Assembly: GCF_017348835.2 (NCBI RefSeq) | Contig: NZ_CP072317.1 | Origin: Escherichia coli | Lineage (GTDB): Bacteria > Pseudomonadota > Gammaproteobacteria > Enterobacterales > Enterobacteriaceae | DNA length: 64,000 bases | Direction: 5' to 3' (one strand) | Program-made: the position numbers and the translations under genes | Part shown: positions 33,941 through 40,110 of the stretch, one piece after another | Layout: each line of letters opens with the position of its first letter | How positions within the stretch are numbered: position 1 is the first letter of the stretch | Notes under the pieces: model-generated | What the model was told of the DNA's origin: nothing | The model's database searches: none | Seen by the model: the letters and a program-made list of their open reading frames with translations, nothing else

Positions 33941-34620
33941 CTGTATCTGATGTTTTCAGCCCCCATCATCTGTTGAGTTTCGGGAGCCGCGGTTTTGACG
34001 TTTTGCGGGGACCTGCCTTTTGTTCCCTCCGGTATTCACCATCACCTGTTTGAGAACCTTCGCCGCAAGGGGCATCACTGCCACGGCCTGACGCACCTGT
34101 CCTGGGCAGAACGCAAAATTTTTTACCGGGTTTTGGGTAAAAAATTTTGTGGGCTGTTCATTTACCCTGGACAGTCAGTGCGGCAGGTTGTGGCTGTCTA
34201 TGCCCCCGGCGACAGGGGCTTAAACAGGTGAATGGCACCGGACAGAACAACGGGCAGGGACCCGCCGCAACGACGTGAAGCGCGGTTTGCGAAACGGCGT
34301 TGCTCCTTACATCCCGGCGTCTTTTGCCGGGATGCCGGGAGCGCAGGCCACGGCGCGACAAGGGTGGCGCGACCGTTCCGGTCGCTGCAAACCCGGGTTT
34401 TTGCGTCAGGGATGGAAGCCCGCCAGGGCGGAGACAGCTTCGCTGGCTCCGTTCACGACAGCCCGCCCCGCCAGGGGGACGCCCGGAAAAGGCATAAGCA
34501 GGAGAACAACAAAACAGACAATAATCAGGGCAGCAGTAATCAGAGTCAGAGCAGTAATCAGAGTCAGAGCAGGAGGAAAAAGAGAATAATCAAAGGGAAG
34601 GTGATGTGATTTCTGGTAAG
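33941..34620 (+). promoter_or_regulatory. Frpo/ssi-like repeat unit, copy 1 (candidate single-stranded-DNA promoter)
   Basis: Near-identical to 39431-40110 and related to 42750-43400; contains a ~230-nt imperfect hairpin on the + (transferred) strand. Confidence 0.6.
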
Positions 34621-34846
34621 TCATAAACAGAGAAGGCGGGGGAAAAGAACGGGCGCCGCAGGCGCACGTTCATCCCCGTTCCCGGAGGGAAACGGCCTTC
34701 CTGGCAGTCTGGTTGTTCATGCCCGTACAATGCCAGCAAGGAGAAAGGGGCCACCGGCGAACCAGCAGCCCCTTTATAAAGGCGCTTCAGTGCAGTCAGA
34801 CCAGCATCAGCCCTGAAAAGGCGGGCCTGCGCCCGCCTCCAGGTTG

Positions 34847-35005
34847 CTACTTACCGGATTCGTAAGCCATGAAAGCCGCCACCTCCCTGTGTCCGTCTCT
34901 GTAACGAATCTCGCACAGCGATTTTCGTGTCAGATAAGTGAATATCAACAGTGTGAGACACACGATCAACACACACCAGACAAGGGAACTTCGTGGTAGT
35001 TTCAT
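34847..35005 (-). CDS. hok: Hok-family toxin (hok/flmA)
   Basis: Manual translation gives [52 protein letters not shown] (52 aa); below ORF-track size cutoff; GC hairpin 34821-34840 in 3' region. Confidence 0.85.
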
Positions 35006-35063
35006 GGCCTTCTTCTCCTTGCGCAAAGCGCGGTAAGAGGCTATCCTGATGTGGACTAGACAT
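34851..35063 (-). CDS. mok: Mok (modulation of killing) overlapping reading frame
   Basis: 70-aa ORF overlapping hok in another frame, as in hok/sok loci; sok antisense RNA expected on + strand about 35030-35110 but not delimited. Confidence 0.55.
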
Positions 35064-35284
35064 AGGGATGCCTCGTGGTGGTTAATGAAAATTAACTTAC
35101 TACGGGGCTATCTTCTTTCTGCCACACAACACGGTAACAAACCACCTTCACGTCATGAGGCAGAAAGCCTCAAGCGCCGGGCACATCATAGCCCATATAC
35201 CTGCACGCTGACCACACTCACTTTTCCTGAAAATAACCCGCTCATTCAGGCTGTTTACGGGTAATCTGTGTGATTGTTGCCGCA

Positions 35285-36004
35285 TCACGCCGCCTCCCGG
35301 AGTTTGTTCGGCACCATCCACCGCTCCATCTCACGGACAGCGTGACCGGCCTCTCTTGCTGCAAGACTGGCTTCCGCAATAACCTGCCAGAACGGCATAT
35401 CCTGCCACTGCCAGCGTTCCATTCCGGCCAGTGACGGAAAACGCTCACCCCACTGCCAGAACAGGGTTTCCAGGTCATGCTCTGCCACCCGGTCACTCCA
35501 GCGTGCATGCCAGCTTCCGACTGTTTCCGGCGAATGGAATGCCAGTTCGATTTCAGCCTGAGCGACCAGCGCCTGGTACGCACGGGCTTTCTGCTCTGCC
35601 TCCCTCGCCTGCTGGCGGCTGTACTTTTGCATGACCAGTGCGGATTTGTGGCGACTGCGCTCCCTGACACGGAACCGCACCGACGGGAACAGCCGCTCTG
35701 CTGCATCGCCGGGAAGGGGAAGAAGGCAGACCTCGCCCTGAGTTTCAATCAGCACATCGACGGCATACAGCCACTGAGAACGGTTGCCGCGCAGTTCTTC
35801 TGCGGTCAGGGACGGCATGAAAAATCGCAGGTCAGACAGCGATATCCTGCGGCTTCCGTTCAGACAGCGGAAAAACGCCCCCGCATACGGATATTCCGCC
35901 AGCGTGTTTCCCTGGTGGCGGCGTTTTTCTGTCTCCGCCACCGCCCGCCATGCGGCCTGTTGCTCTGCGCTGAGGGGAACCAGTGCCTGTGAACGTGCGC
36001 TCAT
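35285..36004 (-). CDS. psiA: PsiA plasmid SOS inhibition protein A
   Basis: 239-aa ORF, stop/start coupled to psiB. Confidence 0.9.
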
Positions 36005-36435
36005 GCCTGACCTCCTTCCGCCATCAGGATATGGATGATGTCACTGACGCTGTACCCCTGCGCGTCCAGTGACGCCGCCAGTGCCAGTGAATGGCTGACG
36101 GCTTCCGGTGCAAACCGCCGCTGTACCTGAACCACCGCAAACGGCTCACCACCGGCATTCACCAGAACCAGCACCCAGACCTGAGAGACATCGCCCGGTG
36201 AACATAACGCCAGGTGAAAACGTTCGTGGGCAGGCGTGAAACGGACCTGGACGGGGAAAAAGCCGCCGAACTCGCTGCCATACTCGCCGTTCATCGTCCA
36301 GTTATCCGGCGCATCCAGCTCCCGCATCACGGCATGTGTGAGTTCACGACGTTCATCACTTCCGGCAGCCCGGATATCTTCATATTCCTGTGCGCTCATG
36401 GTCTGTAATACATTCAGGGTCAGTTCAGTTTTCAT
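36001..36435 (-). CDS. psiB: PsiB plasmid SOS inhibition protein B
   Basis: 144-aa product from second Met, matches F PsiB. Confidence 0.9.
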
Positions 36436-38527: not shown

Positions 38528-38587
38528 GACTATCCCCTTATTGTGTAGTTAATGTCTGCCGGACGTGATCCCCGTCCGGCACCTCTC

Positions 38588-38827
38588 TTACTTAAGGATC
38601 CCGAAATCACGGATGACATGGTTCATCCAGTACCCGGCACCGTCCTCAAAATTCCAGGTACGCCAGACCATTGTTCCGTTATTACGGACAACCAGGCGAA
38701 ACTGTTCGCCGTGGTCATCCTCGATAAAGACGTTCCGGTACTGTGCGGCAACGGCTTCGGCCTGTTTGCGGGTAAAAGGACCGTCAGGCAGTCCCTGAAG
38801 TATTCTGAAATATTCGCTCATCCTCAT
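38588..38827 (-). CDS. conserved small leading-region protein (yubL-like)
   Basis: 79-aa ORF between ssb and the ParB-like gene. Confidence 0.5.
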
Positions 38828-38878
38828 ATCTCCGGTGATGCCCCGCGCAGGACGGGGCGGTTATCACAGTCAGGCCAG

Positions 38879-39406
38879 TCAGAACGGGATATCGTCTGAA
38901 AACCCGTAATCCTCCCCCTCCGGTGGTTGCGGCTGAGGCTCCGGCTGCGCAGCCTTACGTCCACGGCCTTTCGTTTTCGCGCTCCCTTTTTTCGTCGCGT
39001 CAGCACTCTGTGACTGACCATTCTGCTGAGGCTGCGGTTGCACCTGAGCGTTCTGCTGTGGTGCACTCCCCAGCATCTGCATGGTGCCCGTGGTTTTAAC
39101 AAGGATTTCGGTGACGTAACGGGTAATACCGTTATCTTCCCAGCTACGGGTGCGAAGCTGGCCTTCAATGTAGACCTGCGCCCCCTTACGCAGATATTCA
39201 CCTGCCACTTCCGCGAGCTTGCCGAACAGCACCACGCGGTGCCATTCCGTCTGCTCCTTCATTTCCCCCGTCTGTTTGTCGCGCCAGGTTTCTGACGTGG
39301 CCACCTGCAGGTTTGCCACTGCGCCCCCGTTGGGGATGTAACGGACTTCCGGATCTTTTCCCAGACGACCGACAAGAATGACCTTGTTAATGCCACGAAC
39401 TGCCAT
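38879..39406 (-). CDS. ssb: plasmid single-stranded DNA-binding protein
   Basis: ORF 38879..39445; start at [16 protein letters not shown]; OB-fold N-terminus, Q/P-rich linker, acidic tail DDIPF. Confidence 0.92.
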
Positions 39407-39430
39407 GATGTGTCTCCTTCTGTTGATGTT

Positions 39431-40110
39431 TTCAGCCCCCATCATCTGTTGAGTTTCGGGAGCCGCGGTTTTGACGTTTTGCGGGGACCTGCCTTTTGTT
39501 CCCTCCGGTATTCACCATCACCTGTTTGAGAACCTTCGCCGCAAGGGGCATCACTGCCACGGCCTGACGCACCTGTCCTGGGCAGAACGCAAAATTTTTT
39601 ACCGGGTTTTGGGTAAAAAATTTTGTGGGCTGTTCATTTACCCTGGACAGTCAGTGCGGCAGGTTGTGGCTGTCTATGCCCCCGGCGACAGGGGCTTAAA
39701 CAGGTGAATGGCACCGGACAGAACAACGGGCAGGGACCCGCCGCAACGACGTGAAGCGCGGTTTGCGAAACGGCGTTGCTCCTTACATCCCGGCGTCTTT
39801 TGCCGGGATGCCGGGAGCGCAGGCCACGGCGCGACAAGGGTGGCGCGACCGTTCCGGTCGCTGCAAACCCGGGTTTTTGCGTCAGGGATGGAAGCCCGCC
39901 AGGGCGGAGACAGCTTCGCTGGCTCCGTTCACGACAGCCCGCCCCGCCAGGGGGACGCCCGGAAAAGGCATAAGCAGGAGAACAACAAAACAGACAATAA
40001 TCAGGGCAGTAGAAAAAAGAAGAACAGTAGCAGTAGCAGTAGCAGTAGCAGTAGCAGTAGCAGTAGCAGTAGCAGTAGCAGGAACAACAACATCATCAGT
40101 AACAGACAAA
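39431..40110 (+). promoter_or_regulatory. Frpo/ssi-like repeat unit, copy 2, immediately 5' of ssb
   Basis: Near-identical to copy 1; ssb start about 25 bp away. Confidence 0.65.
40026..40081. repeat. hexanucleotide microsatellite (CAGTAG, about 9 copies)
   Basis: Perfect tandem repeat at the distal end of repeat copy 2; copy 1 carries an 18-bp-type imperfect repeat at the same place. Confidence 0.9.

Follow-up and report, generated by a model that had tools for sequence, protein, structure and literature searches.

Short tandem repeats of variable copy number in the linkers behind single-stranded-DNA promoter units of an R100-like IncF plasmid

In an IncF plasmid of Escherichia coli (contig NZ_CP072317.1, assembly GCF_017348835.2), three related promoter units of the leading region, of the class that acts on single-stranded DNA (ssDNA), are each followed by an A-rich tail with short tandem repeats. 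This raises two questions: does the number of repeats vary among related plasmids, and does it matter for the promoters beside them? We analysed these tails in a stretch of 64,000 nt, hereafter called the window, in which all positions are counted from the first letter. Repeat number was found to vary widely among close relatives, and the predicted fold of the promoter unit was found to be almost insensitive to it. These results suggest that the tails are probably ordinary slippage-prone repeats in a non-coding linker.

The most regular tract is located in tail 2. Tandem Repeats Finder (TRF) placed a perfect hexanucleotide tract, (CAGTAG)x9.5, at 40025-40081 on the plus strand (period 6, 100% matches, score 114), and a string search read nine full CAGTAG units at 40025-40078 followed by CAG. 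An earlier note on this DNA had reported a perfect (CAGTAG)x9 at 40026-40081, which is the same tract read in another phase. A perfect periodic tract of 57 nt is impossible by chance in 64 kb. Directly after it, on the same strand, are three copies of AAC at 40083-40091. In tail 1, a perfect 18-nt repeat, AGCAGTAATCAGAGTCAG, is present in 2.3 copies at 34532-34572 on the plus strand (TRF, period 18, 100% matches), and TRF also detected a weaker internal 6-nt periodicity, TCAGAG, of 76%. The earlier note had described imperfect repeats at 34530-34600; a repeat indeed exists there, but it is perfect though short and ends at 34572, and the remainder (34573-34600) is purine-rich without repeats. 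For tail 3, the short remnants that had been mentioned were confirmed as GCAGTAGTCAGAATCAGAGCAGTAG at 43340-43364 and (AAC)3 at 43372-43380, although both lie outside the interval to which the repeats had been assigned. A core motif, CAGTA(G/A)TCAGA(A/G)TCAGAGCAG, is shared by all three tails; hence, the three tails are considered to be homologous.

When 601 nt around tail 2 was searched against the 72,556 plasmids of PLSDB, at least 5,000 records were matched. Among the matches listed, those of full length in a single piece had spans of 583, 589, 595, 601, 607, and 649 nt, that is, in 6-nt steps, and their reported identity of 97-99% was wholly due to the gap. The number of units, n, was counted directly in 84 complete instances, consisting of 7 from the window and PLSDB and 77 from metagenome contigs; 78 metagenome contigs had been anchored on the right flank for these counts. 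The value of n in (CAGTAG)n ranged from 1 to 17, with n = 1 in 6 instances, 2 in 9, 3 in 10, 4 in 13, 5 in 13, 6 in 10, 7 in 10, 8 in 1, 9 in 6, 10 in 3, 12 in 2, and 17 in 1. When the instances were sorted by left-flank haplotype, n ranged over 1-12, 3-9, and 2-10, and over 6-17 in the haplotype of the window itself. The width of the range inside each haplotype indicates that the changes were recurrent. Furthermore, copy number changes faster than the flanks acquire substitutions. Two loci with 0-1 substitutions in 9,647 nt of flanks (L002 and L004) had n = 10 and 6 versus 9 in the window, and a third (L003), with 2 substitutions in 9.6 kb of flanks, had n = 7. In R100, n was 9.

The other tails also vary. 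In tail 3, (AAC)n had 3 copies in the window, 4 in L006, about 5 and about 6 in two other plasmids, and 9 in R100; the tract of about 5 copies bears one AAC-to-GAC change. The spans of records over tail 3, 503-510 nt, are consistent with variation of (AAC)n. The 18-mer of tail 1 was present in 2.3 copies in 10 instances with the tail-1 sequence of the window, R100 included, and in 1.3 copies in F and 8 other flank types where it was recognisable; the PLSDB spans over this tail were 481 versus 463 nt. The tail of the F/pO157 type consists of GAAGAG-like purine repeats, whose length differs among F, pO157, and metagenome contigs. The (AAC)3 beside the hexamer tract had 3 copies in 88 of 88 instances, and this invariance is in line with the rule that instability is a property of long, pure tracts. 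Taken together, the tails show short head-to-tail units of high purity, whole-unit steps between close relatives, and conserved flanks, as is characteristic of a variable-number tandem repeat (VNTR). The proposal of the earlier note that such tracts are prone to slippage is supported by these data, since n takes values from 1 to 17 in 6-nt steps and differs between loci separated by 0-2 flank substitutions. Repeat number is accordingly not invariant across isolates.

The window belongs to an R100-like IncF conjugative plasmid, in which Rfam placed the traJ 5′ untranslated region and FinP at 30.9 kb. To the right of these, all on the minus strand, are DUF932/ygeB, ygeA, hok/sok, psiA, psiB, a ParB-like gene, and a DUF905 gene, as well as further leading-region genes, namely ssb, a methyltransferase gene, a DUF3560 gene, and ArdB/KlcA-type antirestriction genes. 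Given the position of traJ/FinP and the minus-strand orientation of the leading genes, the plus strand is the transferred strand and also the template of these genes. Transcription and complementary-strand synthesis both proceed toward lower coordinates.

The three Frpo-like units named in the earlier note are real. Repeat-family analysis and alignment located direct repeats of about 590 nt at 33948-34533, 39424-40009, and 42730-43319 on the plus strand, and they represent Frpo1, Frpo2, and one further copy of the class-1 (Frpo/ssi-type) ssDNA promoters. Promoters of this class (Frpo1/Frpo2) have been described for F and IncI1 plasmids (PMC9849209, PMC12672017). Copy 1, at the Frpo1 position, lies upstream of the minus-strand genes at 33636-33932 and 32704-33525 (DUF932). 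Copy 2, at the Frpo2 position, lies upstream of ssb (38879-39445, minus strand). Copy 3 lies upstream of a minus-strand gene at 42284-42514 and of the DUF3560 and methyltransferase genes; it is 85-89% identical to the other units, and its diverged right half is common to IncI1 ssi units. Over 586 nt, units 1 and 2 do not differ at any position (100% identity), and the identity ends exactly where the tails start. In the alignment of the three copies, columns 150-400 are near-invariant. The ssDNA folds of copies 1 and 2 were far better than those of shuffled sequence (z = -12 and -9), and consist of a main hairpin of 310 nt followed by smaller GC-rich hairpins. In copy 1, the main hairpin was placed at 33977-34290 on the plus strand by both the minimum free energy (MFE) and the centroid folds, with an A/T-rich apex near 34135, and it is the portion that mimics a double-stranded promoter. 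An Rfam search of 30-46 kb at permissive thresholds matched FinP/traJ, sok, and AS-pc01, and none of these matches fell on the tails or units.

Some observations concern the exchange of sequence between units. Frpo1 and Frpo2 of F are reported to be 92% identical (PMC9849209), compared with the full identity of units 1 and 2 in this plasmid. In addition, the two alternative right halves of the unit were found at any of the three positions in other plasmids, and L006 has the copy-3 type at all three. The identity of units 1 and 2 and the interchangeable right halves suggest that gene conversion or recombination may have occurred between units, ending at the tails. Frpo repeats have been treated as recombination substrates on such plasmids, without the tails (PMC3817090). 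A group II intron (ltrA, plus sense, start GTGCGAC) was also found in L001-L004, at about 10150-12700 of those loci; its site is the exact boundary of unit 3 and tail 3 (GAAGGTGCGC^CCGGCAGACAG), and positions 43319/43320 of the window represent the empty site.

Along the transferred strand, the order of elements is the promoter hairpin, the accessory hairpins, the A-rich linker, and a GC-rich hairpin. RNA polymerase leaves the promoter hairpin toward lower coordinates; therefore, the tail lies behind the promoter and is not transcribed from it. Whichever possible start is taken, the tail is located 3′ of the entire promoter hairpin. The transferred strand was folded for copies 1 and 2, and copy 2 was refolded with n = 0, 1, 3, 5, 9, 13, 17, and 25. 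Between n = 0 and n = 25, the unit kept 212-220 of its 220 base pairs in silico, and the total energy, about -218 kcal/mol, varied by 7.8 kcal/mol between the extremes of -217.5 and -225.3 kcal/mol. The tract was mostly unpaired, with a mean unpaired probability of 0.66-0.79 and zero pairs in the centroid folds. It begins more than 200 nt past the base of the main hairpin, and the sole spacing altered by n was the distance to the upstream GC hairpin. In these folds, the stem-loop that restores the -35/-10 elements did not include the tracts.

These folds bear directly on the suggestion of the earlier note that repeat number could alter hairpin spacing or strength, and so modulate the ssDNA promoter. 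The tracts do adjoin the repeated units, the MFE folds pair the extreme unit ends weakly near the start of the tail, and at n < 9 the MFE fold swaps a few outer pairs (18 unit-to-outside pairs versus 3). However, the tract is remote from the main hairpin and free of centroid pairs, nearly all unit pairs are kept with an energy change of at most 7.8 kcal/mol, and transcription from the promoter runs away from the tract. The suggestion is thus unsupported. We rejected an effect on the hairpin because the structure of the unit is essentially constant over the whole range of n that was folded, and such an effect is regarded as very unlikely.

The repeats are embedded in linkers of about 90-140 nt that are A-rich and T-poor, with A of 0.46-0.48, T of 0.10-0.12, and 69-76% purine on the plus strand. 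By composition, the linker of tail 1 extends over 34497-34600 (A 0.48, G 0.28, C 0.14, T 0.10; 76% purine), that of tail 2 over 39973-40112 (A 0.46, G 0.25, C 0.17, T 0.11), and that of tail 3 over 43320-43412 (A 0.48, T 0.12), the last holding the GCAGTAGTCAGAATCAGAGCAGTAG remnant and (AAC)3. A cut-off on T-poverty (at most 10% T in 70 nt) was too unspecific, yielding 81 segments. Purine content in 100-nt windows did discriminate: on the plus strand, at least 72% purine is reached in the 64 kb by tails 1 and 2 alone, and tail 3 has 69%. On its far side, each linker is bounded by a GC-rich, terminator-like hairpin. A terminator scan found the one that bounds tail 1 on the hok side at 34653-34665 on the minus strand (GCGCCTGCGGCGC then CCGTTCTTTT). 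The one that bounds tail 2, at 40153-40178 on the minus strand (GGGGCCGCGC..GCGCCGCCCC then TTTCATT), was recognised by sequence reading and alignment and was not called by the strict terminator scan of the minus strand; it lies downstream of the methyltransferase gene at 40261-40824. A homologous GC hairpin follows all three tails (alignment columns ~810-835), and these hairpins are predicted to end the preceding operon.

The same layout was seen beyond the window. In two IncI1 units (L087), the unit is followed by an A-rich linker of about 40 nt and a GC hairpin, without tandem expansion, and a more distant unit (L088) has a purine-rich tract at the position of the linker. An A-rich, T-poor linker followed by a GC hairpin was present in all units examined. 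The tandem repeats themselves are not conserved with the unit, as they are absent from the two IncI1 units and different in F.

Taken together, these findings suggest that the tails are probably replication-slippage repeats in a low-complexity, non-coding linker and that their copy number is near-neutral. Slippage would have expanded a different motif at each position, namely CAGTAG at the ssb-proximal unit, AAC at the third, and the 18-mer at the first; the motifs expanded in F and pO157 would be of the GAAGAG type. The number of copies drifts fast, apparently with little or no consequence. The dispensability of the expansion is indicated by n = 1 in 6 of the 84 instances and by the two IncI1 units, which keep the layout without it. 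The tail is copied by a DNA polymerase that comes from upstream, just ahead of the structured unit. If complementary-strand synthesis stalls at this unit, immediately downstream of the tract, misalignment may be favoured, and the stalling may raise the rate of slippage during conversion in the recipient. At the stem of ssp2, a class-2 ssDNA promoter of F, complementary-strand synthesis has been shown to stall (bioRxiv 10.64898/2026.01.09.698686); that Frpo-type units might act likewise is our conjecture by analogy.

Several points weigh against this interpretation. In the same report (bioRxiv 10.64898/2026.01.09.698686), ssp3 had no roadblock activity, which leaves the link from stalling to the Frpo-type units conjectural. 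The metagenome counts rest on short-read assemblies, in which tracts of at most 102 nt should assemble correctly. Near-neutrality of linker length is an assumption. Moreover, tails 1 and 2 are the most purine-rich 100-nt stretches on the plus strand and the linker is kept in IncI1; this extreme composition and this retention imply that the linker itself may be under selection.

The last point leads to the main rival explanation, which we consider unlikely: the linker is functional, the repeats tune its length, and slippage makes insulation or promoter firing heritably variable. Two versions of it can be drawn. On the transcript-sense strand, the linker is pyrimidine-rich, with C in excess of G, unstructured, and placed right after a terminator-like hairpin, so that it resembles a Rho-loading or extended termination zone and might insulate each ssDNA promoter from read-through. 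Alternatively, on the transferred strand, a stacked A-rich tract with poor affinity for SSB might keep the promoter domain isolated or accessible. The purine content that sets tails 1 and 2 apart from the rest of the plus strand, with tail 3 close behind, would agree with either version, as would the minus sense with about 46-48% U and C > G. So would the order of GC hairpin, linker, and unit, which is kept at all three positions and in the two IncI1 units with differing linker sequence, and the likewise purine-rich tract of L088. Nevertheless, the present data gave no sign of Rho, SSB, or RNA polymerase acting on the tract. The transcript-sense repeat, (CUACUG)n, lacks UC and CC dinucleotides; hence, expansion adds no preferred Rho contacts. 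A tuned length is made doubtful by the spread of linker lengths, with about 40 nt in IncI1 and about 190 nt at n = 17, and by the common occurrence of n = 1. Shared descent of the units could alone account for their like composition. A broader form of the idea would make the linker behind every class-1 ssDNA promoter a functional element, on the entering single strand or on its transcript, either an unstructured SSB-poor pad or a Rho-loading insulator. Plasmid descendants would then differ heritably, through slippage, in how strongly or how long the leading region is expressed in the zygotic phase, or in when the complementary strand is synthesised. That the tails constitute an establishment contingency locus of this kind is still less probable.

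Other roles for the tracts were judged from their coding and binding capacity. A variable repeat of a small protein is suggested by three frames that are open across the tract and by units of 6, 3, and 18 nt, all of which keep the frame. The candidates are a membrane-like minus-strand open reading frame (ORF) of 72-75 amino acids with (Thr-Ala)n, a poly-Leu minus-strand ORF of 86 amino acids, and a poly-Ser plus-strand ORF of 125-155 amino acids. In the ORF list, the first appears in copy 2 as an ORF of 75 amino acids with a TTG start at 39882-40109 (minus strand), which we judged to be no gene, and in copy 1 as a counterpart of 72 amino acids at 34406-34624 (minus strand, ATG at 34624). The 72/75-amino-acid ORF contains a hydrophobic segment, and such ORFs have been called in public annotations, one of them as a 'pilus protein'. 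However, neither start (ATG 34624 or TTG 40109) is preceded by a Shine-Dalgarno sequence, and scans of three ORFs returned zero Pfam families above the cut-off. The N-termini differ by position, units with the other right half give an unrelated C-terminus, and the tail of copy 3 has no equivalent ORF. The frames annotated across records are three and mutually exclusive, and the plus-strand ORF is antisense to all leading-region genes. We rejected a coding repeat, given the inconsistent frames, the unconserved C-termini, and the lack of a ribosome-binding site; like the effect on the hairpin, it has very little probability. Promoter scans found no sigma-70-like site within 33800-34900 or 39300-40300, and a switch acting through a promoter spacer was excluded on the basis of these site-free scans of both tail regions. 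The tracts also differ from phase-variable repeats in that their units keep the frame, no genuine coding sequence crosses them, and they do not lie at a promoter element. Finally, the repeats might be iterons bound by a protein such as the ParB-like one whose gene lies between copies 1 and 2. In favour of this, the repeats are tandem, a ParB/Srx-like protein is encoded in the region, and true 11-bp parC iterons exist elsewhere in the window (47570-47740). However, a period of 6 nt gives no helical phasing, the unit contains no inverted repeat, and copy number is unconstrained, as n runs from 1 to 17. The motif is different at each position and in F, and IncI1 plasmids with the same ParB-like protein lack the tract. 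Repeats that act as iterons or centromere-like sites are not expected to have these features, and this explanation is the least credible of all.

The public ORF calls are documented in three records, L005 (6602-6976), L006 (6680-7116), and L007 (7808-8164). Their three frames are incompatible, one giving the poly-Ser 'pilus protein' and two giving overlapping minus-strand 'hypothetical proteins'. These calls are probably spurious and are propagating in databases.

Several other features of the window were recorded. At 37077-37144, there is a 50-bp perfect palindrome of two IS10 ends, CTGATGAATCCCCTAATGATTTTGGTAAAAATCATTAGGGGATTCATCAG (37086-37135), with a 9-bp direct repeat, GGCAGAGCG, on either side. 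The ParB-like gene is divided by it into ORFs at 37106-38527 and 36504-37079, and Tn10 is inserted in R100 at exactly the same junction. The palindrome matches the classic scar of 'nearly precise excision' of Tn10. The scar is common to L002-L004 and a metagenome contig (L009), and L001 is about 50 nt shorter there. The 11-nt A/C-rich iterons at 47570-47740 (TRF period 11) immediately precede a parM/stbA-like gene that starts at 47750 and are the parC centromere of the R1/R100 partition system. At 42509-42610 on the plus strand, the Rfam family AS-pc01, an antisense RNA of plasmid pHK01, matched with 89.7 bits, above the gathering score; the match is antisense to the 5′ end of a gene for 76 amino acids just downstream of promoter unit 3. 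The published ssp2/yffB primer sequences of F match 45197-45310 with 1-2 mismatches; accordingly, the window is predicted to carry also an ssp2-type class-2 roadblock promoter upstream of the ArdB/KlcA-like gene at 44209-44634.

The mechanistic weight of these results is small, as the tails appear to be ordinary slippage-prone repeats in a non-coding spacer. Their practical use may be larger. The (CAGTAG)n tract, and to a lesser extent (AAC)n at unit 3, separates IncF plasmids that show no other difference over at least 9.6 kb; hence, as a marker it could allow R100-like and other IncF resistance plasmids to be followed through outbreaks cheaply and at high resolution. Annotators should be aware of the spurious ORFs on the tracts, which occur in three frames and once under the name 'pilus protein'. 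In addition, many short-read metagenome contigs end about 30-150 nt from the hexamer tract (L011, L039, L055, L057, L062, L064, L065, L072, L073, and others). Assemblies seem to break near the tract, at the edge of the repeated unit, which may bias the reconstruction of plasmids, and pipelines should handle this locus cautiously. An effect of repeat length on early gene expression or DNA conversion, if there were one, would offer a simple handle on the tuning of plasmid establishment in new hosts, but nothing here points to it.

Among known systems, the tails most resemble the bacterial simple sequence repeat (SSR) and VNTR loci used in multiple-locus VNTR analysis. As in those loci, the units are perfect and head-to-tail, the steps are of whole units, the flanks are conserved, and the change is much faster than substitution. 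The difference is in the setting, since the tails stand in the leading region of a conjugative plasmid, beside ssDNA promoters. No description of the locus or of its repeat sequence was found in the searchable literature, and two papers that join the terms tandem repeat, leading region, IncF, and ssb describe it in neither case. The locus is thus a VNTR of a known type, itself apparently undescribed. The phase-variable contingency loci of Neisseria and Haemophilus likewise consist of a hypermutable SSR near genes for coping with a new host. In contrast to them, the reading frame survives any change in the number of tail units (6, 3, and 18 nt), no real gene runs across the tract, and the tract lies behind the promoter rather than between -35 and -10. 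The same plasmid carries another perfect short tandem repeat with a unit that is a multiple of 3, in the gene for a TraD-like coupling protein (minus-strand ORF, 4273-6525). There, a 9-nt repeat in 13.9 perfect copies, TGGCTGTTG, at 4552-4676 encodes (Gln-Gln-Pro)13 in the C-terminal part. That repeat is inside a conserved ORF of 750 amino acids, whereas the tails have no conserved ORF. Lastly, in comparison with the Frpo/ssi class-1 ssDNA promoters of IncF and IncI1 plasmids (Masai & Arai 1997; PMC9849209; PMC12672017), the tails flank genuine units of this class, and the linker and GC hairpin travel along with the unit in both IncF and IncI1. The tails differ from the promoters themselves in that they are unpaired and lie outside the promoter-rebuilding stem-loop, and their expansions are specific to lineages and absent in IncI1.

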